Position numbers and translations under genes: made by a program. Shown here one piece after another: positions 861-54,106 of a stretch of DNA of 64,000 nucleotides; position 1 is the stretch's first letter; each line of letters begins with the position of its first letter. The notes below the pieces were generated by a model. The model was not told the DNA's origin, ran no database searches, and saw only the letters and a program-made list of their open reading frames with translations. The stretch comes from Gammaproteobacteria bacterium (GTDB lineage: Bacteria > Pseudomonadota > Gammaproteobacteria > GCA-002705445 > GCA-002716945): positions 1 to 64,000 of the forward strand of contig JBJKYD010000012.1 of the NCBI GenBank assembly GCA_045561295.1, written 5' to 3'.

Positions 861-1774
861 AAGTTTTTTTGTTTATAAATATAAATTTCATCTTTTAAAT
901 CAATTGTCATTAAGTCTTTAGCAATTAGTACCTTATGTTTAGTATTTTTTTTGATCTCATTTAATATTTGTTCATCTGATGAGCCATCTAAGGATAAAAC
1001 ATGATTCAGGATTGTAAGTCTGGGCTTTACAGTATTTATAATCTTTGAAACTTGAGATGCATCAGTGTGATAAGAAATAACTCCTTTTGCTTTAGGATAT
1101 TTTTCTAATGTATGCTCTGATGCATGAGCTATTTCATGAATTAATAAATCACAATTTTTTGTTTTTTCTATTACTTGCTCAGAATATGTCGTATCACCAG
1201 ATATCACCATACAATATTTACTATTAAAAATTTTGAATCCAAATGCGTATGTAAATGGCTCATGTTTAACTGCAAATGTTTCAATTGTTAATCCATTTTT
1301 CTTGTATATAAAATCATCATAGATAATTTCTATATTTGATTTAAGATTTTCTACATTCAAACTTTCTGGAGGAAGGCTTCTTACTTTAATGTCTTCTTCA
1401 AATGATTTGATTGTGCTATCTACAAAATTGATTGTACCTGGAGGTCCAAAAATATTGAGTGGTTTTTGTCTATGATAGACCCATCCAGTCATTAAAATAT
1501 CGGAAAACCCAAGTATATGATCTGAATGCAGGTGAGTAAAAAAAATATTTTCGATTTCATTAGGCAATATGCGTGATTGATTTAATCTAAGAAGCGCTCC
1601 TCTACCCGCATCAAAAAGGAATTTATCATTTTTGTGTTCTATAAGAATTGATTGTGAAAATCTATCAATATTTACTCTTGGTGTTCCGCTTCCCAAGATA
1701 GTCACCTTTATAATATCCGCATAGATATTGCTTGATAAAATAATTAGGAATAAAAAAAGAAATATTCTCATCAT
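857..1774 (-). CDS. Secreted MBL-fold metallohydrolase (RNase Z/AtsA arylsulfatase-like)
   Basis: Signal peptide, ILGSGTP, LFDAG, THLHSDH, ISGDT, LLIHE. Confidence 0.8.
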   Translation of the reverse strand: MMRIFLFLFLIILSSNIYADIIKVTILGSGTPRVNIDRFSQSILIEHKNDKFLFDAGRGALLRLNQSRILPNEIENIFFTHLHSDHILGFSDILMTGWVYHRQKPLNIFGPPGTINFVDSTIKSFEEDIKVRSLPPESLNVENLKSNIEIIYDDFIYKKNGLTIETFAVKHEPFTYAFGFKIFNSKYCMVISGDTTYSEQVIEKTKNCDLLIHEIAHASEHTLEKYPKAKGVISYHTDASQVSKIINTVKPRLTILNHVLSLDGSSDEQILNEIKKNTKHKVLIAKDLMTIDLKDEIYIYKQKNL

Positions 1775-1799
1775 AGTATTGTAATATAATTAATCACGT

Positions 1800-2666
1800 A
1801 TGGATAATAAAAACAAAATTGACCTTACAAAATCAAAAAGGCCAGAAACTTCTGAGATTAAAGTTACAGATGAGTATAACTCTGACAGATCTTTTCCAAT
1901 TACGGGTGAATTGCCTCTTACAATCTACTTAGATAAAAAAGAGATTGTTACATTAATGACTCTAGGACATTATCCTGAAGCGCTAGTGATTGGTTATCTT
2001 AGAAATCAAGGCATTATTAATGATATTACTCAACTAGAGTCTGTTCATGTAGATTGGTCTGTAAACTCTGCAGCTGTAACGACAAAAGGATTAGATCTTG
2101 CAAAGGTTAAGAATAAACTAAAACATAAAGTTGTCACCTCCGGTTGTGGGCAAGGAACAACATTTGGAGGAATAATGGATGAGCTCAAAGAAAAAAAAGT
2201 AAGCTCATTTAATATCAAACAATCAACAATATATAAACTTTTAAAACTTCTTCATGACAAAAATGAAATTTACAGAAAATCAGGGGCAGTTCACGGATGT
2301 GCACTGTGTAGTCAAGATAAAATATTAGATTTTGTAGAAGATGTTGGAAGACATAATGCTGTAGATGCAATTGCAGGCAATATGTGGCTGAATGACATCC
2401 AAGGTGAAGGAAAAATATTTTATACCACAGGTAGATTAACATCAGAGATGGTGATTAAAGTTGCTCAAATGAATATCGGTGTTCTGTTATCACGATCAGG
2501 TATTACAGAGATGGGTTTAAATGTTGCCAGAGAGACAAATGTAATCTTACTTGGCAGAGCAAAGGGCAAACATTTCTTAATTTACAATGGTAAAGAACAT
2601 ATAAAATTTGATTCTATACCAGAACCTAGACCTGAGGGAGCTACAGATGTGTGGAAAAGAAGATGA
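1800..2666 (+). CDS. fdhD: Formate dehydrogenase accessory sulfurtransferase FdhD
   Basis: TSGCGQG, GAVHGCAL, EDVGRHNAVD, TTGRLTSEMVIK. Confidence 0.92.
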   Translation: MDNKNKIDLTKSKRPETSEIKVTDEYNSDRSFPITGELPLTIYLDKKEIVTLMTLGHYPEALVIGYLRNQGIINDITQLESVHVDWSVNSAAVTTKGLDLAKVKNKLKHKVVTSGCGQGTTFGGIMDELKEKKVSSFNIKQSTIYKLLKLLHDKNEIYRKSGAVHGCALCSQDKILDFVEDVGRHNAVDAIAGNMWLNDIQGEGKIFYTTGRLTSEMVIKVAQMNIGVLLSRSGITEMGLNVARETNVILLGRAKGKHFLIYNGKEHIKFDSIPEPRPEGATDVWKRR

Positions 2667-3441: not shown

Positions 3442-3483
3442 TTTGGTATATAATTTATTAGTGGATGTATTCTAAACGAATTA

Positions 3484-4491
3484 ATGAATAAAAAAAAGCC
3501 AAGAATTTTAATAATTAGATGTGGGTTATTAGGAGACACTATTGACTCAACTGCAGTTGTGAAACCATTAATAGATTATTTCGGTGATGAATTAACTATT
3601 GATTGGCTCACCAAGCCTAATCTAATAGATTTATTTAAATATGATTCACGAATTTCGCCTATAGTATTAAAGTTTACGAAGTTGCCACTTCTAATTAATT
3701 TCGGAAAATTAAAAATCATATTTAAATCCTATTTAAATCCATATGATGCTGTGATTAATTTAGAAGTTGGTTCAAAATTTAAAAATTTTGCGCGATTAAT
3801 AAAATCAAAGATTAAAGTTGGTCAACCTTATAAATACGTTGCAGAAAATAGAAAAAATGAACATAGAGTTAAACATCAGTTAAGGATACTACAATCATAT
3901 TTCAAAGACATTAATGCTGATGAATGTTATCCATACCTGATTGGATCAAATATCAATGTTGCTCGTGAGTATGGTATCAGTAATAAATATGTTGTGGTTT
4001 GTCCTTCAAATAGTAAGTTCAATAAAAAAAATCATAGGGGATATAGGGCTTGGCCATTAAGTAACTGGAGGAACCTGATTAAAAAGATTATTACTCAAAC
4101 AGCACTAGATGTAGTTATCACTGGCGGAAAAAATGAAAAAGAATTTATAGATCAACTCAATGTCCGAGATAGCAGGGTTCATAACTTATGCGGAAAGACT
4201 AGTCTACCAAACCTTTATGAAGTTATGAAAGATAGTGAATGTGTCATCGCTACTGATAGCGGCTCGGTGCATGTTGCAGGAGTCAGTTGTAAGAAGGTTG
4301 TTTCTCTTCATGGCCCAACTCCATTTAAAGAAACTGGACCCTATGGTAACTCCATGAATACAATTATCGAAGCAAATTTAAAGATGCCTTGCTCTCCTTG
4401 CTACAATACAAGCAGAATCACATCATGCCCCGAAAATAAGTGTATGATTGATTTATCTCCAGATAGAGTTCTGGCGTACATACTTAAATGA
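3484..4491 (+). CDS. Glycosyltransferase family 9 (heptosyltransferase-like)
   Basis: LGD N-terminal motif, RAWP, LCGKTSL, TDSGSVHVA, GPT, C-terminal CSPC...C...C. Confidence 0.85.
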   Translation: MNKKKPRILIIRCGLLGDTIDSTAVVKPLIDYFGDELTIDWLTKPNLIDLFKYDSRISPIVLKFTKLPLLINFGKLKIIFKSYLNPYDAVINLEVGSKFKNFARLIKSKIKVGQPYKYVAENRKNEHRVKHQLRILQSYFKDINADECYPYLIGSNINVAREYGISNKYVVVCPSNSKFNKKNHRGYRAWPLSNWRNLIKKIITQTALDVVITGGKNEKEFIDQLNVRDSRVHNLCGKTSLPNLYEVMKDSECVIATDSGSVHVAGVSCKKVVSLHGPTPFKETGPYGNSMNTIIEANLKMPCSPCYNTSRITSCPENKCMIDLSPDRVLAYILK

Positions 4492-6156: not shown

Positions 6157-6981
6157 TTAAGAGAGATATTTTGAATCTCTTTTCATTGTCTCATAAATTT
6201 CATTTGATAAATCAACATCATTAAATTTAGAGTTATAGTCATTTAAGTTGTGTAAATCATTAATAGTAACGTTAATGGTCTTATTGCGATTTTTGAGGAC
6301 CTCTCGAAATAAAAAATACTTTCTAAGTGAAAATGAAATCTTTGTAACTAACTGGAATAAATAACTTGATCTGCCATGAATATAAACCGGAAGTATTGGA
6401 CAGTTAAATGACTTAGATAATTTCACCGGCAGTGAACTCCACTTTGAATCTACAGGAGTATTAAATATTCCTGATGAACTTGAAACCTCACCTCCAGGAA
6501 ATATTACTAATGCACCACCATCAGTCAAATGAGAGTGAGCACGACGTATTGCAGATATGTTATTTGATTTCTCTTTTTTATCCAAAGTGTTAAGTTCTAA
6601 AGGAATAATTCGTTCACATATTTCAGGAATTTTTTGTAAAGCTTCATTTGCTAAAAACATATAGTCATCTCTGTAAAATGAAAGTATCTTGCCTAATAGT
6701 ATTCCATCTGTAATTCCATAAGGATGATTACAAACAACAATCAGTGATTCTTTTTCAGGGACCTCTACATTATTAAGATATTTTATATCGACATCAATAT
6801 TAAGTACCCTTAAAGCGGAAGACCACCAATTTTCGTCTTTATCTTGTATTTTAGATTCACAATATATCTGATCAACAGTAGTTACGCCTATAAGTCTCTC
6901 AAGAAACTTGAAAAATCCTCTTTTAATAGGATTTTTTTCGAATGTTGCTATGGATAGTTTATTATGGATATTATTTTGCAT
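6157..6981 (-). CDS. Lysophospholipid/lyso-aminolipid O-acyltransferase (PlsC superfamily)
   Basis: NHPYGITD (HX4D), IFPGGEVS, ILPVY. Confidence 0.8.
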   Translation of the reverse strand: MQNNIHNKLSIATFEKNPIKRGFFKFLERLIGVTTVDQIYCESKIQDKDENWWSSALRVLNIDVDIKYLNNVEVPEKESLIVVCNHPYGITDGILLGKILSFYRDDYMFLANEALQKIPEICERIIPLELNTLDKKEKSNNISAIRRAHSHLTDGGALVIFPGGEVSSSSGIFNTPVDSKWSSLPVKLSKSFNCPILPVYIHGRSSYLFQLVTKISFSLRKYFLFREVLKNRNKTINVTINDLHNLNDYNSKFNDVDLSNEIYETMKRDSKYLS

Positions 6982-7831
6982 AATACCTTTTTACTCTATC
7001 GTCGATACTATGAATATCAACATAAGTAAAAACATCAATAGATCTAAACTCATAATCAATCACTGCTCCATCTCCGAACTTTGAACCTACATTTATATAA
7101 GCCTTAATTAAACTTGGCAGTGATTTGAATATTGACCTTTCTGTACCATGAAGGTTAAAGTCATCATACATTTTGCATTTAGATAACTTATCAACAGTTA
7201 GTGATATGTTATCTCTCGGGGTAACCATAATTTTTTTATCCATTAGATAATTTTGTTTAAGATAAGAGAGTTGAGGCATTATTTCATCAGGCTCAATTGT
7301 CCAAAAACTTGCACATCCTAATAGAACATCTATTTTTTCTTGCATGATATATTTATACAATCCCTTCCAAAGAAGTTTGAGTACTCCGGATTTTCTGTAC
7401 GCAGGGTGAATACAGGTGCGACCTAGCTCCAGAAAATTACTATATCCAATGTTTTTTTTAAAAAGATCTAAGTTAAAACACATGCTATTTGATGTGTAAC
7501 AGTTATCTAACTGAGAGGTAGATGAATACTTTATTACTCTATAAACACCAACAACCTTCTCGAGACTCAATGGTGTAGATTTAGCTTTGACAATAATATG
7601 AGTAGCATTTTCATCATATTGATCAAATTCTCTTTTAATTACTTGTCCTTTTAATTTTGTTGTAACTTTTAATTCTTTTTTAAAAATTTTGTATCTTAAG
7701 TGTTGTGCTTGGCTAGATTCTTTTACTGTCTCAGCCTCTTTAAATGAAAACTTAGGGTAGGTTTTGCTATGATCCAATAAATGGTTTGTAAGGTCTCTGC
7801 TTTTTTCTGTGATAGCCTCAAACACAAGCAA
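6971..7831 (-). CDS. olsB: GNAT N-acyltransferase, ornithine-lipid synthase OlsB-like (alternative GTG start at 7825)
   Basis: AQHLRYKIF, DQYD, VVGVYR, LELGRTCIHPAYR, LLWKGL, LGCASF, PSLIKAY, IDYEF.IDVF. Confidence 0.75.
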   Translation of the reverse strand: MLVFEAITEKSRDLTNHLLDHSKTYPKFSFKEAETVKESSQAQHLRYKIFKKELKVTTKLKGQVIKREFDQYDENATHIIVKAKSTPLSLEKVVGVYRVIKYSSTSQLDNCYTSNSMCFNLDLFKKNIGYSNFLELGRTCIHPAYRKSGVLKLLWKGLYKYIMQEKIDVLLGCASFWTIEPDEIMPQLSYLKQNYLMDKKIMVTPRDNISLTVDKLSKCKMYDDFNLHGTERSIFKSLPSLIKAYINVGSKFGDGAVIDYEFRSIDVFTYVDIHSIDDRVKRYYAK

Positions 7832-7903
7832 ATAGTAACTAAAAGTTATTAAAGAAATAAAAATATTTAATTTATTTTTATCTACATTTATGTGAAAGAT
7901 TTA

Positions 7904-8688
7904 TTACTGGTAGAATTCCTCTATGCCAAGATTTAACTGTTTGCTTTTTTCTCGCCAACTTATAATCTCAAAATTTCCATCATGATGTTCTACAATTGCT
8001 GTACAACTATCAACCCAATCACCATCATTCATATATATCATGTCATCAATTTCAATAATTTTTGCAGTATGAGTATGCCCGCAAATAACACCATCAAAAT
8101 TTCTGATTTGAGCTTGCCTAGCTACTTGAGACTCAAATTCATAAAGATACTCCAAATATCCTTTTGCTTTTTGTTTCAACATTCCCGAGAAACTCCAATA
8201 AGGGAGTTTTAATAATCGTCTCAGTCTATTGAGCTGTCTGCTTACCCATATAGCATAGTTATATGCTCTATCTCCGAAATAGGAGAGCCATGGATACTCC
8301 ATAAGGTTTTGTCGTAGTGATCTCCATGTGTGACTAGATATTTTCTCTTATCTATACCGTAGTGAACACACTCATCAACTATAGATATATCTCCAAAAGT
8401 TATATCATAAGTTAAATATTTTCTTAGGGCCTCATCATGATTTCCGAGAACGTATGTTACCTTGGTTCCCCGTTTTGCAGAGGTTAAAAATCTTCTGATA
8501 ATATTTGTATGCTCTTGAGGCCAATGAAATCCATTATTTACCTGCCAACCATCTACAATATCTCCTATCAAGTATAAGTTGTTCGATGTGTATCTTTTTA
8601 GAAAGCTTAGAAGTACATCAGCTTGACAGCCCTTTGTACCAAGATGTATGTCAGAAATAAATATCGATCGATAATCATGTGTTTCCAC
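7904..8688 (-). pseudogene. plcP: PlcP-type phospholipase C (LpxH-like metallophosphoesterase), split by a 1-nt frameshift (possibly an assembly error)
   Basis: ORF 8242..8688 has SDIHLG, GDIVDGW, GNHD, HGD; ORF 7904..8302 has CGHTH, YMNDGDWVDSCTAIVEH. One added nt near 8305-8310 joins them into 261 aa. Confidence 0.8.
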
Positions 8689-8694
8689 TGTGCA

Positions 8695-8750
8695 AGATTA
8701 CAAACGTAAAATGATAGACTGATTAAAGAATCTTTAAGTTTTTGTTAATT
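8695..8750 (-). promoter_or_regulatory. Pho box and -10 element of plcP
   Basis: Minus strand: AATTAAC / ACTTAAA / CTTTAAT / CTATCAT at 11-nt period (consensus CTGTCAT), 10 nt, TAATCT, 6 nt, GTG start. Confidence 0.6.
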
Positions 8751-9770
8751 CTGGCCAAATTTTGTTTTCACAAAATCTATAACAAGCTTGTGAGATTTGA
8801 TTCTAGAATCAGGGTTGTATTTAACGAATGCTCCTTTTACGGTACATGCTTCTATAAACTCTTTTCTTGATTGAAAATCATTGAGGGAATAAATATTAGT
8901 TTTACTGATTGTCTTTAAAGACTTATCTATAACAATGCTACAGATATCAGATTCATTTAATGTCGGTTGCCATGGAAGATATGCTCCTAATAAAAAAGCA
9001 TGGTTATCAAATCCATGGTAAGAATTAGCTAGCTGATGATATGAAATATTCTCACTCTCTCCAAATTCATTAAATAAATTCATACAATACTTTGCTGGAG
9101 TTATCTCATCCAGCTCACCACTAATTAATAATAAAGGAATGTCAGAAGGCTGATAATCTTCAAAAGAAATATCACAAAATGTGTATACTCCAGCTAAGAA
9201 TGACAGTTTAATGTTTGACGGAATATATTTATCATAAATTTTTTTATTCCTCAGTGAAAGAGCAGAAATGCCGCCTTTTGACCAACCAATATAGCCTACT
9301 TGACCATCTAGTCTATGACCGTAGTATTTCGTTAAGTGTTCCAATGTTGCAGTAATATCAGACAGCATCATCGCTTCAGAGACACTTACAAAGTCAAAAT
9401 CAATAGCGATATTTCTTGGGCTAAAATGGTCTATTATTACTACAGCGATGTCATTTGACAAAAAAATATCTTTATAGTCATGATGAAATTGAAAAATTCC
9501 ACCCGCCCCATGAGATATTATAATTATCGGCACCTTTTTAGATGTTTTTGGAAAATAAAAATGAGCAGGAATATTTAAATTTTGACTGGTAACATCAGAA
9601 TCATAATCATAAGTGTTCGATGAGGCAACACAAGCCGTAAAGACGTCGGATTGATGTACTGTATTTCCTTTACCGCGGTCAATGCAAGCATGATGAGGGT
9701 TAAAAACAGCTAACATAATCAAAAACCCTAAAAAAAGAAATAAAAATATTGTCCTTAGCACACCCTTCAA
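8745..9770 (-). CDS. Membrane-anchored dienelactone hydrolase-family alpha/beta hydrolase
   Basis: N-terminal TM, HGAGG, GWSKGG nucleophile elbow, GELDEITP, YHGFD. Confidence 0.8.
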   Translation of the reverse strand: MKGVLRTIFLFLFLGFLIMLAVFNPHHACIDRGKGNTVHQSDVFTACVASSNTYDYDSDVTSQNLNIPAHFYFPKTSKKVPIIIISHGAGGIFQFHHDYKDIFLSNDIAVVIIDHFSPRNIAIDFDFVSVSEAMMLSDITATLEHLTKYYGHRLDGQVGYIGWSKGGISALSLRNKKIYDKYIPSNIKLSFLAGVYTFCDISFEDYQPSDIPLLLISGELDEITPAKYCMNLFNEFGESENISYHQLANSYHGFDNHAFLLGAYLPWQPTLNESDICSIVIDKSLKTISKTNIYSLNDFQSRKEFIEACTVKGAFVKYNPDSRIKSHKLVIDFVKTKFGQN

Positions 9771-9809
9771 TATATCTTATTTATATTATCTTTTTATTAA
9801 ATATCTCTG

Positions 9810-9815
9810 TATAAT
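9810..9815 (+). promoter_or_regulatory. -10 element for tRNA-Glu
   Basis: TATAAT 14 nt upstream of the tRNA 5' end. Confidence 0.45.
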
Positions 9816-9829
9816 ATTCGAATTGTTAA

Positions 9830-9902
9830 GTCCCCATCGTCTAGAGGCCTAGGACACTGCCCTTTCACGGCGGCAACAGGGGTTCGAATCCCCTTGGGGA
9901 CG
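9830..9902 (+). tRNA. tRNA-Glu(TTC); CCA not encoded
   Basis: GTCCCCATCGTCTAGAGGCCTAGGACACTGCCCTTTCACGGCGGCAACAGGGGTTCGAATCCCCTTGGGGACG; acceptor stem, TTC anticodon, GGTTCGAATCC T-arm. Confidence 0.97.
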
Positions 9903-9957
9903 AAGTCAAGCTCTGAATACACAATAAAATAAAGACTTGTAAGACAATCATCAATTG

Positions 9958-9979
9958 CAACCCAACACCCAACCCAACA
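9958..9979 (+). repeat. Tandem CAACCCAACA x2 (12-nt period), left arm-type sites
   Basis: Exact copies at 9958-9967 and 9970-9979. Confidence 0.85.
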
Positions 9980-10063
9980 ACAGACATTAGTTTAAACATA
10001 TTTTGTGAAGAAAGCTGTGCGAATTTGTTAATGTTATTTTTAAATTTATATATAATTATAGAT

Positions 10064-10264
10064 ATGATTAATCATAAATCTAAACTCATTTGTCCACACT
10101 GCAGTCATGAAAAAACTATCACGATGCCCTCGACTTTTTGTCAATATTTTTTAGAGTGTACAAATTGCAAAACAGTTATAAAAGCTAAAGCTGGCGATTG
10201 TTGTGTGTTTTGTTCTTATGGAGATATCAATTGTCCTCCAATTCAAAAAAACTCAGCAGAGTGA
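10064..10264 (+). CDS. GDCCVxC domain small Cys-rich protein (66 aa)
   Basis: CPHC...MP..FCQYFLECTNC...KAGDCCVFCSYGDINCPPIQ; ATG 10064 lies 7 nt after TATAAT. Confidence 0.88.
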   Translation: MINHKSKLICPHCSHEKTITMPSTFCQYFLECTNCKTVIKAKAGDCCVFCSYGDINCPPIQKNSAE

Positions 10265-10398
10265 GTGTGTGGCTACCCACCTCTAAATCTAATTACTAAA
10301 TGTCTTCAACGTTACTTGCTGTCTGTTAATGTAGATATACGAGTCTTTTCTGTAATTTTTACTGTCAGTCAAATTGACTATCATCTGCTCTATCCTTC

Positions 10399-10420
10399 CA
10401 ACCCAACATGCAACCCAACA
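10399..10420 (+). repeat. Tandem CAACCCAACA x2 (12-nt period), right arm-type sites
   Basis: Exact copies at 10399-10408 and 10411-10420. Confidence 0.85.
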
Positions 10421-10570
10421 AATTGTAAGGCAGTCAAAGTAGGTTAATGTTTTCTACTGCTCAATTATCCCACTAAAATCAACAAATAAAATACTTGTTT
10501 ATTGACCTTTAAGCCTAATCGAGCCTACTATATAAATATAGTAATGTCCCTTGGGGACGAGTCAAACTAA

Positions 10571-10792
10571 TTAACTCAAGAAATAATTCATATAACCAAT
10601 CGCAAAAATAGGTAACTGTAGACCAAAGTTTGTCATCACAGCTTTATCTTGCATCAGATATCCAGACATCATCCAACCTAGCGCACCAATCGAATGTATA
10701 AAGATATATAGAGGATATAGATTGAATTGAGCAATAAGTATTCCTGTTAAAACCAGAAATGTACTCCCCCATTTTAGTGTGGTAAGACTCAT
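10571..10792 (-). CDS. Small 3-TM membrane protein (DUF6552-like)
   Basis: KW.ST..VL.GI...N.YP.....GALGW...G....DKA...NF pattern; AGGAG Shine-Dalgarno upstream. Confidence 0.7.
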   Translation of the reverse strand: MSLTTLKWGSTFLVLTGILIAQFNLYPLYIFIHSIGALGWMMSGYLMQDKAVMTNFGLQLPIFAIGYMNYFLS

Positions 10793-10879
10793 AGTTATTC
10801 TCCTAAGTAATTATTTTAAAAAACCATAGATATAATTTAAATAATATGTTTCGATTATATAGTTGAATGAGGAAGATTT

Positions 10880-10993
10880 TTGAACAAAGAGTTACAAACA
10901 AAGATTAAATTTAGAACAATGGTGCGAGTGTATCTAATATCTTTATTTATAATCATGCCAATCGTATTTTTTATTTGGTATATATCTAGGTAG
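10880..10993 (+). CDS. Small single-TM protein (37 aa), not in ORF track
   Basis: TTG start after GAGGA; MNKELQTKIKFRTMVRVYLISLFIIMPIVFFIWYISR*. Confidence 0.45.
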   Translation: MNKELQTKIKFRTMVRVYLISLFIIMPIVFFIWYISR

Positions 10994-10994
10994 T

Positions 10995-11093
10995 CTATAG
11001 TTGTTTTAGAAGTTTCTTCTCTCGTGATTTGCACTTTTTTGTACATTTTTTCTTTTTACATTTTTTCGAACAATATATCTTCAGCTTAGACAT
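10995..11093 (-). CDS. Small Cys/Lys-rich peptide (32 aa), not in ORF track
   Basis: MSKLKIYCSKKCKKKKCTKKCKSREKKLLKQL*; TATAAT 5 nt before ATG; stop 1 nt from the convergent sORF stop. Confidence 0.45.
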   Translation of the reverse strand: MSKLKIYCSKKCKKKKCTKKCKSREKKLLKQL

Positions 11094-11168
11094 TCTTTAT
11101 TATACAAATATTGATGAGAAAAAACACTTACAGTAAAAGTGTGGTAATTAAACAATTAAATTGCTTGA

Positions 11169-12917
11169 TTAAAGATTTGTTAGCCAGATTGTCTGATATG
11201 GGAATAAAGTTAGTTTACTGGTAACGTCATTGAATTTATTTTGTGAAATTAGATCTTCCCATTCATCAAAACCTATCAGGTTAAGATCCAATAAACTAAG
11301 ATCCACATCTTTATCTGTAAGATTAGAAATACAAAAAATACTTTGCTTTTTATCAAGACTTTGTCTCCATACTCCGTATAAATTTTTACCTAAGTGAAGG
11401 GTGAACTGTACCGCATTAGGATGGAATGCGCGCTGTCTTTTTCTAATATTCGAAAGTGTTTTGAGTTTATTAAATATTTTAGTTTGAAGTTTGGTTTCAT
11501 CTAATAACTTAATATCCTCATATTTTATTTTTCCTCTATTTAATGATCTATTTTGTCCAGTCTTTTCAAATAATTCATGGTCATTTTTTGTACCAAACAA
11601 GCTGTGAATATAAAGTGCAGGAACTCCTTCAAGTGACAACATTATTGTATGAATACATATAAATCTTTCAAAACCGAGATTAGACTCTTTATTAAAGGCA
11701 ACAGTCATAGCATCATAAAGTGAAATATTAATTTCATATGGCTCAGGCGTATCTGTATTACTTGAGCGATAAGACACTTTACCTCCATTATTTTCCATCT
11801 GTTCTATAAATATATCAATTTCATCTTTTGATAAAAATGATTCAGCTGGACGAAGTCCAATCCCATCATGCGATGCAATAAAATTTAGATAAGATGTTCC
11901 TAATTGAGATGGGGGCATGCTCATTGTTAACTTTTCTAGATATGAAGAATCACCAGAGAGAATAGAATATACTAAAATAGGAGGAAGAGAAAAATTATAA
12001 ATCCAATGTGCTTCATTCGCATTACCAAAATAGGAGACATTCTCTCTAGCTGGTGTATTTGTCTCAGTAACTAAAATAGCCTTTGGTGATAGATAGGTTA
12101 ATAAGGTTCTAAATAATCTTACAATTTCATGCGTTTTATCAAGATTAATACAACGAGTTCCGATTTTCTTCCAAATAAATGCTACTGCATCAAATCTAAA
12201 AACAGTAATTCCTTTAGATAGATAAAATATTATTATTTCAATAAATTCATAGAGAACCACTGGTTTACTGAAGTTATAATCTACTTGATCTCTACTGAAG
12301 GTGCACCATACAAATTTCTCACCAGCACTCGTGTCAAAAGAATTCAGTAAATCACTGGTCCTTGGTCTTATAACTTTGGATACATCAAATGTTTCGTCAA
12401 AGTTTAAAAAATAGTCATGACCTTTACCCTTCCCTTTTATAAAATTGTTAAACCATTTTCCTTTAGATGAACCATGGTTAATCACAACATCAGCCATCAC
12501 TCCAAAATCTTTGGAAATTTTTAAAATGTCATTCCATTGACCGAATTTATGGTAAATAGTGTAGTAGTCCATTACAGAAAAACCAGTATCAGAACTTGAT
12601 GGAAAAAATGGGAGTATGTGAACTATCTCAAAGAAATCTTTGGCGTGGTCATGTAGAAAATTATTGATTGTGTTAATCGGCAGATTATTCTTATCGTTTA
12701 TTGTGTCTGCATAGGTAATTAATACTATGGTCTTTTCTGACCAAGGCTCACCCTCTTGAGTGATATGCTTTGGTAATTCATGTTGAGAGTCGATAATCTT
12801 CGATAAAATACTATCTGTTAGTTGTGTTAATTCATCTGAATTCAATATACCTTCATAAATACGATAAATATGTTGATTAACTCTTTTCTCTAAATTTTCT
12901 TTTTTATTTTCTGCCAT
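11169..12917 (-). CDS. GH13_18 glucosylglycerate phosphorylase (sucrose phosphorylase family)
   Basis: VHILPFFP, DVVINH, TFSRDQVD, RFDAVAF, TETN, ASHDGIGLRP, YEIN; TETN/YE.N are the glucosylglycerate-specific signatures. Confidence 0.82.
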   Translation of the reverse strand: MAENKKENLEKRVNQHIYRIYEGILNSDELTQLTDSILSKIIDSQHELPKHITQEGEPWSEKTIVLITYADTINDKNNLPINTINNFLHDHAKDFFEIVHILPFFPSSSDTGFSVMDYYTIYHKFGQWNDILKISKDFGVMADVVINHGSSKGKWFNNFIKGKGKGHDYFLNFDETFDVSKVIRPRTSDLLNSFDTSAGEKFVWCTFSRDQVDYNFSKPVVLYEFIEIIIFYLSKGITVFRFDAVAFIWKKIGTRCINLDKTHEIVRLFRTLLTYLSPKAILVTETNTPARENVSYFGNANEAHWIYNFSLPPILVYSILSGDSSYLEKLTMSMPPSQLGTSYLNFIASHDGIGLRPAESFLSKDEIDIFIEQMENNGGKVSYRSSNTDTPEPYEINISLYDAMTVAFNKESNLGFERFICIHTIMLSLEGVPALYIHSLFGTKNDHELFEKTGQNRSLNRGKIKYEDIKLLDETKLQTKIFNKLKTLSNIRKRQRAFHPNAVQFTLHLGKNLYGVWRQSLDKKQSIFCISNLTDKDVDLSLLDLNLIGFDEWEDLISQNKFNDVTSKLTLFPYQTIWLTNL

Positions 12918-49872: not shown

Positions 49873-51069
49873 CTATTTTTTTCTTGTTTTCAGCCTAAGT
49901 GCATTAATTTTTATAAAGCCCTCAGCGTCCCTTTGATTATATGCTCCAGAGTCGTTCTCAAATGTTGATAAATCCTCAGAATATAATGAATATTCAGATC
50001 TTCTCCCCTCAACAATGACATTACCTTTATATAATCTAAGTCTAACATCACCAGAAACTCTCTTTTGAGATTGATCAATCAAGCTTTGAAGAGATTCTCT
50101 CTCCGGGCTAAACCAATAACCATTATAAATTAATCTTGAGTATCTATTAGTTAAATCTTCTTTTAAATGAAGCATTTCTCTGTCTAGCGTTATCGATTCT
50201 ATTGCCTTGTGAGCCTTGAAATAGATTGTTCCGCCCGGAGTTTCATAACATCCTCTAGATTTAATACCAACGTATCTATTCTCAACAATATCATCTCTGC
50301 CAATGCCATGATTACCAGCTATTATGTTAAGTTGATTTAATACTTTAGAAGGGCTCATTTTTTTATTATTGATAGCAACTATGTCGCCCTTATCAAAAGT
50401 CAATTGGAGTAACTCTGATCTTGATTTACTTTTTTCAAGAGATTTTGTTCTCAACCACATTACTTCTTCAGGTCTCTTCCATGGATCCTCCAAAATACCT
50501 CCCTCATATGATGTATGAAGAATGTTTGCGTCCATAGAGTATGGGCTTTTTTTACCTTTATCAAAATCAACGGCAATTTTATGTTTCTTTGCATAACCCA
50601 TTAAATCTGATCTAGATATAAAGTCCCACTCTCTCCATGGCGCTATAACTTTAATTTTAGGATTTAATGCATAAGCAGCTAATTCGAATCTTACTTGATC
50701 ATTGCCTTTACCGGTTGCTCCATGACAGATATATTCAGCTTTTTCTTTCTTTGCTATTTCAATAAGTCTCTTACTTATAAGAGGACGAGCAATAGATGTT
50801 CCCAGAAAATATTCACCTTCGTAAATTGCATTTGCTCTGAACATTGGATAAACATAATTAGATACAAAATCCTCTCTAAGATCTTCGATATATATTTTTT
50901 TTATACCAAGTTTCTTAGCTTTTACTTTGGCATCTCTAGTTTCTTCACCTTGACCAATATCAGCAGTAAAAGTAATGACTTCAAGATCATAGTGCTCCAT
51001 AAGCCATTTAGCTATTACAGATGTATCTAGACCGCCAGAATAAGCTAATACAACTTTTTTAGGCTTCAT
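49873..51069 (-). CDS. argG: Argininosuccinate synthase
   Basis: [50 protein letters not shown]. Confidence 0.97.
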
Positions 51070-53093: not shown

Positions 53094-53838
53094 CGTCTTT
53101 ATTGATTTTGATTGTTTTAAAATCATTATTTTTTAGATCTAATAGAAAAAGTTTACTTTCAAATGTTTTTCCAAATTTGCACAACACTTTGATACATTCT
53201 GTCGCTAAGATAGTGCCAACGAAACCAGTAACACTTCCAAGAATACCTGAATCTAGACATGTATTTTTTGTATTAGGAAGATCTGAATATAAACATCGAT
53301 AACATGGTTCGTTATCAATATCATTTCTAAAGACTGCAACTTGCCCTTCAAACTTTAATGCTGCTCCTGATATAAGTGGTATTCGATGTAAAAGAGATAT
53401 TTGATTAATAAGGGTTCTTGCCTCAAAGTTATCTGTACAGTCAATAATTACATCAAATTCTTTGAGTTTGCTTGTATCAAATCTTTGATCAACCCTAGAC
53501 TTATCAGTCTTTATTATTAAATCAGAGTTGAGTTCCAGTAGTCTTTTTGATGCCGCATCTACTTTGTTTTTATTAAGATCGTTTTCAGTGAATAGAGTTT
53601 GTCTATTAAGATTGGTTAATGATACTGTATCGTCATCTATTAGCAATAAGGTCCCGAGGCCAGAAGATGCAAGGTATGTAGATACCGGACAACCTAGACC
53701 GCCTAGACCAATGATTGCAACTTTTGAATTTATAAGTATTGTTTGTCCATCAATATCAACTTCAGGAAGAACAATATGTCTATTATATCTTAGTAATTGT
53801 TTGTCAGTTAAATCAGCCTTTGTTTTTTTGGCTAGCAT
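53071..53838 (-). CDS. moeB: Molybdopterin-synthase adenylyltransferase (MoeB/ThiF)
   Basis: RY.RHI.L, G.GGLG, D.V..TNL.RQ, DCTDNF..R, PCYRCL, C..C C-terminus. Confidence 0.88.
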   Translation of the reverse strand: MLAKKTKADLTDKQLLRYNRHIVLPEVDIDGQTILINSKVAIIGLGGLGCPVSTYLASSGLGTLLLIDDDTVSLTNLNRQTLFTENDLNKNKVDAASKRLLELNSDLIIKTDKSRVDQRFDTSKLKEFDVIIDCTDNFEARTLINQISLLHRIPLISGAALKFEGQVAVFRNDIDNEPCYRCLYSDLPNTKNTCLDSGILGSVTGFVGTILATECIKVLCKFGKTFESKLFLLDLKNNDFKTIKINKDDECRYCK

Positions 53839-54106
53839 TAAATTTATCCAGTTGTTCTTTTGTTGCCTCTTTCTGATATTTTTCTTTATAACTATCATAA
53901 GGCATTCCATATATTAACTCTCTTGCAGCATCATATGATAATTCTTCACCTTGGGAGGAAGACTCTGATACATACCATTTTGAAATACAATTTCTGCAAA
54001 AGTTCGCCAAATTCATTAAATCAATATTTTGGACATCAGGATTCTCTTGCAAATGCTTCACAATTCTCCTGAATGTTGCAGCTTCAATTTCTGTTTTTTT
54101 ATTCAT
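53813..54106 (-). CDS. DUF1244 family protein
   Basis: EAA.FRR.V.HL....DVQNIDLMNLA.FCRNC..KW...IYGMPY..K..YQ. Confidence 0.85.
   Translation of the reverse strand: MNKKTEIEAATFRRIVKHLQENPDVQNIDLMNLANFCRNCISKWYVSESSSQGEELSYDAARELIYGMPYDSYKEKYQKEATKEQLDKFNASQKNKG

Follow-up and report, generated by a model that had tools for sequence, protein, structure and literature searches.

The 657 bp that follow a tRNA-Glu gene in an uncultured gammaproteobacterium (NCBI assembly GCA_045561295.1, contig JBJKYD010000012.1) are bounded by two copies of the tRNA 3′ end, carry paired short repeats in both arms and enclose a single small cysteine-rich gene. The interpretation to which we give roughly an even chance is that this segment may be the fixed attachment-site (att) scar of an element without an integrase, and that the cargo gene inside it may have been exchanged independently of the scar. 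A preliminary description of the locus had proposed a gene cassette with intact att-like ends that is mobilised in trans. The DNA analysed covers 64 kb (positions 1 to 64,000 of the contig, forward strand; hereafter the window), and every window-wide count or negative result given below is limited to those 64 kb.

Core copies and arm repeats at the tRNA-Glu gene

The segment begins within an intact tRNA-Glu(UUC) gene that lacks an encoded CCA (9830–9902, plus strand; identified by ARAGORN and by Rfam RF00005 at 56.8 bits) and that would be the integration target. It is the sole tRNA that ARAGORN finds in the window, and an Rfam scan of 9500–11200 at E ≤ 1 returns it as the single match. The core sequence CCCTTGGGGACGA consists of the last 12 nt of this tRNA plus the next base, and coincides with the tRNA-Glu 3′ end, like the core of a tyrosine-integrase att site. 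It is found exactly at 9891–9903 and again at 10548–10560, with a start-to-start distance of 657. In a repeat search, the attL-like left copy, continued by AGTCAA, spans 9891–9909 and the attR-like right copy, continued by GTCAA, spans 10548–10565, both on the plus strand; with the flank included, 18 of 19 positions agree and the remaining one is an A indel. These two copies are the only matches to CCCTTGGGGACGA in the window even at two or fewer mismatches (the mean for shuffled sequences is 0.13, and 1 of 100 shuffles reaches two), and the exact 13-mer is expected 8.6e-5 times per window from base composition. The GC content of the segment, 0.31–0.36, is the same as that of its flanks.

The same search revealed direct repeats in both arms. 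The left arm (9910–9999, plus strand) contains the 14-mer TTGTAAGACAATCA at 9937–9950, followed by two copies of the 10-mer CAACCCAACA at 9958–9967 and 9970–9979. The right arm (10371–10547, plus strand) contains this 10-mer at 10399–10408 and 10411–10420, followed by the 14-mer TTGTAAGGCAGTCA at 10423–10436. Each pair has 12 nt spacing and is embedded in a 26 nt block that is 88% alike between the left and right arms, and on both sides the 14-mer, of the form TTGTAAG(A/G)CA(A/G)TCA, lies between core and pair. The motifs present on both arms are two exact 10-mer pairs and one 14-mer per arm. Exact copies of CAACCCAACA number four in the window, all on the plus strand with starts at 9958, 9970, 10399 and 10411, compared with 0.054 expected from base composition; at one mismatch or fewer there are seven matches, whereas shuffled sequences give 1.99 on average. 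Both the core and the arm repeats greatly exceed chance expectation. The preliminary description had reported the recurrence of the tRNA 3′ end with its shared flank, and had placed the two pairs 55–76 and 128–149 nt inside the cores; all of these coordinates are right.

Related loci come from a scan of contigs with the exact 73 nt tRNA-Glu sequence, which yielded at least 120 loci. The 120 loci listed (labelled in the style L001) are spread across many gamma- and betaproteobacterial metagenome-assembled genomes (MAGs), with flanks of up to 2 kb in 80 cases and of 300 nt in 40, and the window's own genome is not among them. According to tblastn with eight window proteins, genes neighbouring the window's tRNA are shared, among the loci listed, solely by L024, L028 and L112, for which downstream sequence extends 2000, 455 and 300 nt, the 2 kb belonging to L028. 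A NUDIX gene is present in all three of these relatives, the cargo gene in L028 and L112, and an SP-like gene together with a 37-aa open reading frame (ORF) in L028.

Directly after the tRNA, all three relatives read (A)(A)GTCAAG, as does the window at its left junction, and all three carry the left arm there at the same offset, so that no empty site is seen. In each, a pair with 12 nt spacing stands at +54/+66 from the tRNA, the place equivalent to that of the window's CAACCCAACA pair. The sequence of the pair differs among lineages (TTGACCCCC(C/T)A twice in L112 and L024, TTGACCCAAT / GAACCCAACA in L028), and both units shift together. A second repeat, TAGCCCTTAA, is located at about +14/+15 and +37/+38 in L112 and L028. 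The window's own 10-mer, searched on both strands, occurs in none of the 120 loci listed; the right arm likewise finds no match there, its one match being to the window's left arm. Within the 2000, 455 and 300 nt at hand, no second pair or second core was found in the relatives. An encoded CCA follows tRNA-Glu in 116 of the 120 loci, and the four loci without it are L024, L028, L112 and the unrelated L026. The CCA-less tRNA-Glu of the window and its three relatives is consistent with a 3′ end overwritten by element DNA; CCA addition is therefore needed in this lineage.

The history that we favour would begin with a P4-type tyrosine-recombinase element that integrated into the tRNA-Glu 3′ end and later lost its integrase. 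The two core copies would represent attL and attR, and the paired 10-mers and the 14-mers would be former arm-type sites, putatively for the integrase and accessory proteins. Because the left arm is common to four species-level lineages, the integration would be old: the arm would predate the split of at least four such lineages and would now be a fixed part of the chromosome. In its simplest form, the empty site (attB) is predicted to consist of the tRNA end followed by GTCAAACTAATT, and the predicted circular junction joins 10547 via the core to 9904.

Several observations weigh against this history. Both core copies are followed by GTCAA and not by CCA, and the right copy is therefore not simply the displaced native CCA end. 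The right arm and right core are known from the window alone, so that attR ancestry is not demonstrable. The relatives are under-sampled, being three only, with flanks as short as 455 nt in one and 300 nt in another. No parent element with the window's arms was found among the loci listed, and the case for an integrase origin is therefore carried by the architecture alone. Also, four identical 10-mers are unexpected for an old neutral scar, and their identity speaks for a constraint that continues or for a conversion of recent date.

The first of these points bears on a different scenario, tandem accretion, in which the right core would be the left junction of a second, deleted element and the 657 bp would be the surviving inner element of a former array. 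The right core and its flank match the L112 junction after the tRNA at 20 of 21 positions, rather than a CCA end, and accretion at att sites is documented as a route to tandems of cis-mobilizable elements (CIMEs) in the relevant part of PMC5704250. Locus L006 (3541–3867, plus strand) has two successive extra copies of the tRNA-Glu 3′ end. One is a 46 nt copy of the tRNA 3′ half at +1540, which bounds a 1.5 kb segment with a HicB gene and with no integrase in the two ORFs scanned; as a further integrase-less segment at tRNA-Glu, it also speaks for the history that we favour. The other, shorter copy, at +1791, does not help this scenario, however, because it belongs to a structured element of ~120 nt that is described below. 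In the window itself, no third core copy was found, and what lies to the right of the core is a DUF6552 gene without element features. We regard accretion as very unlikely.

The repeats might also have no integrative origin. They could flank a small metal-responsive gene as regulatory sites or as binding sites for host proteins, with the second core formed by local duplication or serving as a terminator hairpin for DUF6552. In four lineages the distance from the tRNA to the left pair is constant, which would suit a regulatory or processing site of the host, and the sharing of a 26 nt block and a 14-mer beyond the bare 10-mers gives the arms a duplication-like appearance; the order core–arm…arm–core, however, fits integration and not tandem duplication. 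The right core lies 5 nt past the DUF6552 stop codon and contains a GTCCC..GGGAC palindrome, but no terminator-like site is predicted in 9700–10900. Elsewhere, the tRNA-Glu 3′ end is duplicated with no integrase involved, as in the ~120 nt element at 14 of the 120 loci listed, yet a covariance model of that element finds nothing in the window. Furthermore, CCA has been lost in precisely this lineage, which speaks for a replaced 3′ end, and a match of 18 in 19 positions is not convergent. A non-integrative origin is thus unlikely in our judgement.

The cargo gene and its module

The cargo gene is the one credible gene between the cores, as the preliminary description had stated. It encodes a small, cysteine-rich protein of 66 aa (10064–10264, plus strand) that matches NCBIfam NF041374, 'GDCCVxC domain-containing (seleno)protein', at 90.2 bits (cut-off 40; E 7e-26) over model positions 1–57 of 58. 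The protein contains CPHC and GDCCVFC motifs. It matches no Pfam family, a PDB sequence search returned nothing below E 0.37, and the Atlas clusters found for it are unnamed or GDCCVxC and nothing else. In the literature library searched, no paper contains the term GDCCVxC.

Relatives of the cargo gene are present in 354 plasmid records (tblastn). Among five plasmids inspected, the homologue follows merT-merP or merTP in two (Alteromonas pKD01 and Runella pRUNSL02), is located within an ars operon in one (Sulfuricella pSCD), lies beside an HTH regulator in one, and in another stands beside a Tn3-family transposase and a recombinase, near a copper resistance gene. The mer and ars neighbours on plasmids make it likely that the cargo protein is a thiol-based binder of soft metals or metalloids. 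Whereas the family on the inspected plasmids is found beside mer, ars or other genes, the window's cargo gene stands alone with its own promoter. The locus is a simple natural system for asking what GDCCVxC proteins do.

Comparison with the relatives delimits a cargo module (10000–10270, plus strand) that consists of a short conserved leader, an AT-rich promoter region and the coding sequence. The start codon lies ~8 nt past a TATAAT-like box and is not preceded by a Shine-Dalgarno sequence (10049–10066); judging from this arrangement, the mRNA may be leaderless. Promoter-like sites in 9700–10900 number 10, compared with 6.2 ± 2.5 in shuffles, and are uninformative. In L028 the cargo gene (1743–1874, minus strand) is frameshifted in a T run, and the homologues P0008–P0011 and P0019 are frameshifted too (P-numbers denote protein relatives of the cargo from a protein-database search, mostly on metagenome contigs). 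These frameshifts reflect either homopolymer sequencing error or frequent inactivation.

Identity between the window and its relatives changes sharply along the locus. The tRNA promoter is 93–96% identical, and the left arm is alignable solely as pieces of 26–54 nt. For the NUDIX gene, identity to the window is 78.7% in L028, 87.1% in L024 and 81.5% in L112 (over 135 nt only); a 271-aa gene is about 75% identical, and the SP-like gene 70% (L028). The module 10000–10270, in contrast, is 98% identical in L112 over 201 nt and 95–97% identical in L028. When restricted to 10020–10266, the values are 98.9% (183 nt) for L112 and 94.8% (249 nt) for L028. In L112 the module differs from the window at 2 of 183 positions and the NUDIX gene at 25 of 135 (Fisher p = 2e-8), and in L028 the corresponding counts are 13 of 249 and 116 of 545 (Fisher p = 2e-9, the range given being 2e-9 to 1e-16). 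A module of ~270 bp that is 95–99% identical, compared with housekeeping neighbours at 70–87%, suggests that one small gene has recently crossed species boundaries, perhaps with metal-related selection.

The presence and absence of the cargo gene also respects the module and not the cores. L024 lacks ~250 bp, from about 10020 to about 10270, which comprise the promoter and the gene, and retains the leader (10000–10019). Its junction reads ...AAAGTGTGCG|TGTAAGTAGG... and is followed by a 95% match to window positions 10285–10367; it is located inside the 657 bp, away from both cores. In L028 the cargo gene is followed by a 51-aa membrane-like ORF and a 186-aa gene, neither of which belongs to a known family, instead of the right arm and DUF6552, and similarity to the window resumes at the 37-aa ORF and the SP-like gene.

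Metagenome sequences extend this picture. A protein search with the cargo returned 19 relatives, mostly from metagenome contigs, nine of them at 89–100% identity. Read-through ORFs on metagenome contigs, in which the cargo is 89–100% identical, show at least three different downstream continuations, which are like that of L028 in P0007, P0008 and P0011, like that of the window in P0009, and of another kind in P0004. Upstream, the left-arm read-through of P0006 equals the translation of window positions 9936–10013 at 20 of 26 residues; the six differences all fall outside the bases of the 10-mers, and third codon positions are invisible in such a comparison. P0002 has an identical cargo preceded by a stretch without the C-rich pair, and in P0017 and P0018 the 3′ half of the cargo is fused to unrelated N-termini. 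Given these varied flanks, the locus is often rearranged in nature, and the cargo is its constant part.

In the history that we favour, the cargo would be a self-contained promoter-plus-ORF module of ~270 bp that moves alone between related genomes, most simply by homologous recombination followed by selection, which would trim the transferred DNA to the gene and its promoter. Both flanks of the tRNA would form a small hypervariable hotspot, and exchange of the cargo would not involve excision of the whole 657 bp unit. That the 657 bp form one mobile unit, as the preliminary description suggested, is not supported, given the barely alignable left arm, the 95–99% identity of the module and the loss in L024 at an internal junction. 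With an arm diverged almost beyond alignment and a module that has recently spread, the 657 bp are not one evolutionary unit.

Integrases and known mobile elements

The window contains no recognisable integrase gene, as the preliminary description had noted. A Pfam search of 72 of the 74 window ORFs of at least 110 aa gave no match to Phage_integrase; the two left out, 50695–51030 and 53528–53917, are antisense inside longer ORFs. A tblastn search with the one tyrosine integrase recovered elsewhere (L079, see below) found nothing better than E 7.7 in the window and no integrase remnant. Neither do the data indicate that the segment came from a phage: among 50,697 phage records, blastn with the segment found a single 38 nt match (E 5e-3), and tblastn with the cargo found none.

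Integrases downstream of tRNA-Glu elsewhere were surveyed by Pfam in the long-flank loci on 100 of 168 stop-to-stop ORFs of at least 140 aa, the 68 dropped being mostly shorter overlapping frames. This survey revealed one tyrosine integrase (L079, a Nitrosomonas MAG) and one serine recombinase (L017). The L079 enzyme is of the P4 type, with Arm-DNA-bind_3, Phage_int_M and Phage_integrase domains and a match to NF007246 at E 3e-79. Its gene starts ~180 nt past an identical tRNA-Glu, and between the two lies a 12-nt-spaced pair, TTTGCGAGTAAC / TTTGTGAGTAAC. L079 is one real case, at an identical tRNA, of the architecture that the preliminary description had proposed. It resembles the window segment in its target tRNA, in a core within the acceptor/T-arm 3′ strand, and in a 12-nt-spaced pair of 10–12 nt repeats beside the tRNA. 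It differs in that an integrase follows 180 nt after the tRNA, the encoded CCA is kept, and its repeat, TTTG(C/T)GAGTAAC, is unrelated to CAACCCAACA; the L079 island is known from its tRNA-proximal end. The att-like architecture of the window segment is thus upheld by the core duplication, by paired repeats in both arms that are not random, and by the L079 parallel, and it is the mobilisation of the unit in trans that is not supported.

The mobile proposal was that of a live, non-autonomous cassette of 657 bp, moved in trans by an integrase encoded elsewhere or on an incoming element, with the 10-mers as its arm sites. In its favour, the attL- and attR-like cores are intact, and cargo sequences from different species are almost the same. 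The two units of the pair change jointly between genomes, a behaviour to be expected if they co-evolve with a protein that binds them, and the left arm of P0006 is compatible with the same pair although 6 of 26 surrounding codons differ. Indeed, the identity of the four 10-mers, taken with this concerted change, is the best argument that the repeats may still bind something. CIMEs are known to be mobilised, according to the part of PMC6323972 that deals with them. Against these points, the left arm lies at one offset in all three relatives, none of them has an empty site, none of the 120 loci listed carries the 10-mer, and the 64 kb hold no integrase. The window and L112 have a cargo that is 98–99% identical, yet the left arms beside it can barely be aligned; the 657 bp therefore did not move as a whole. 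In L024 the cargo is missing at an internal junction and not at the cores, and no second core lies within 2 kb in L028. The search for relatives with the same ends and other cargo, which the preliminary description had suggested, gave none that shows the right arm or a second core. Its companion suggestion, a tRNA-Glu integrase flanked by the same 10-mer pair, led to L079 alone among the loci listed, with its unrelated repeat. No matching integrase element was thus found there for a single-gene cassette shuttled in trans, and we consider such a cassette quite unlikely.

We are equally doubtful of a broader variant, in which the tRNA-Glu trailer would be a working dock for integrase-less mini-cassettes, with repeats that co-evolve with an integrase encoded elsewhere and modules that are shuttled between species. 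A dock would explain both the joint change of the pair units between species and the identity of the four copies. If it were real, it would be the smallest trans-mobilised integrative cassette described; more generally, if the repeats proved to be active integrase sites, the segment would define how small a trans-mobilised integrative element can be.

By anatomy, the segment is CIME-like. CIMEs are decayed remnants from integrative and conjugative elements (ICEs) or integrative and mobilizable elements (IMEs), with attL and attR kept, as set out in passages of PMC5704250 and PMC6323972, and the class of element inferred in the preliminary description is already described there. As in the CIMEs of those passages (PMC5704250, PMC6323972), the segment lies between direct repeats of the target gene 3′ end, lacks integrase and transfer genes, and contains cargo. 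The cited work, in those passages, is on streptococci, whereas the window is from an uncultured AT-rich gammaproteobacterium. In addition, no related autonomous element was found among the loci listed for the window segment. Size is a further difference, since catalogued CIMEs are usually far larger than 657 bp with one gene.

The tRNA-linked flexible genomic islets of free-living bacteria, which are exchanged by homologous recombination, offer a second comparison. As in these islets, gene content at the locus varies on both sides of the tRNA, and one module is near-identical across diverged backgrounds; the window differs in that att-like cores and arm repeats are still recognisable. If the fixed-scar interpretation is correct, the locus would be an ordinary but clean case of an element that decays to its att ends, and of a tRNA-linked scar that turns into a small, variable hotspot within a compact genome.

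Neighbouring features and a structured element elsewhere

A conserved non-coding segment follows the cargo gene (10285–10367, plus strand; 95.2% identity to L024 over 83 nt). It is retained in L024 although the cargo gene is missing there, and its conservation exceeds that of the protein genes nearby. Within it lies TGTTAATGT, which occurs a second time at the start of the cargo module (10026–10034). The segment shows no significant fold, with z values of −0.61 on the plus strand and −0.17 on the minus strand, and no Rfam match. An integron cassette was rejected because this post-cargo segment folds no better than shuffles and the window has no integrase. Two further ORFs were also rejected as genes: 10265–10447 (60 aa) matches no Pfam or NCBIfam family and its frame is broken in P0009, and in the small antisense ORF 10289–10384 all four base differences to L024 change a residue and a start codon is lacking in L024.

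Immediately beyond the right core, in the variable zone, lies the gene for the 73-aa DUF6552 protein (10571–10792, minus strand; PF20189 at 33.9 bits, cut-off 27). On the other side of the tRNA, a 3.6 kb block that extends from the NUDIX gene to the tRNA-Glu promoter (6157–9770) encodes a PlsC-type acyltransferase, an Acetyltransf_5 (GNAT) protein, a metallophosphoesterase and a 341-aa alpha/beta hydrolase. L024, L028 and L112 lack this block and have the NUDIX gene immediately next to the tRNA; the region upstream of the tRNA is therefore variable as well. By tblastn, DUF6552, the 341-aa hydrolase, the phosphoesterase and the acyltransferase are found in none of the 120 loci listed. Within the block, two overlapping ORFs in different frames (8242–8688 and 7904–8302, together 7904–8688 on the minus strand) correspond to N- and C-terminal portions of an LpxH-like metallophosphoesterase, a split that looks like a frameshift or a sequencing error.

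The ~120 nt conserved element mentioned above follows the tRNA-Glu terminator in 14 of the 120 loci listed (L002, L006, L009, L011, L021, L026, L035, L037, L043, L064, L069, L087, L092 and L106, with two copies each in L021 and L064; an example is L011:2118–2252, plus strand). It consists of the motif GGTTCGACAAA, three hairpins and a copy of the last 14–16 nt of tRNA-Glu plus CCA, with which it ends, and it is often accompanied by a second copy of the tRNA's own terminator. Compensatory changes are present in 10 of 24 predicted pairs. No Rfam family scores above threshold, and ARAGORN makes no call in the five loci scanned (L006, L009, L021, L035 and L085). The element is a candidate for an unnamed structured RNA with a tRNA-like 3′ end. 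The right core of the window was tried as part of this element and rejected, since the covariance model gives no window match at E ≤ 10 with default filters and a best score of 2.9 bits with filters off. In L021, an ORF with a reverse-transcriptase domain (3477–4073, plus strand) is located ~1 kb past two tandem copies of the element.

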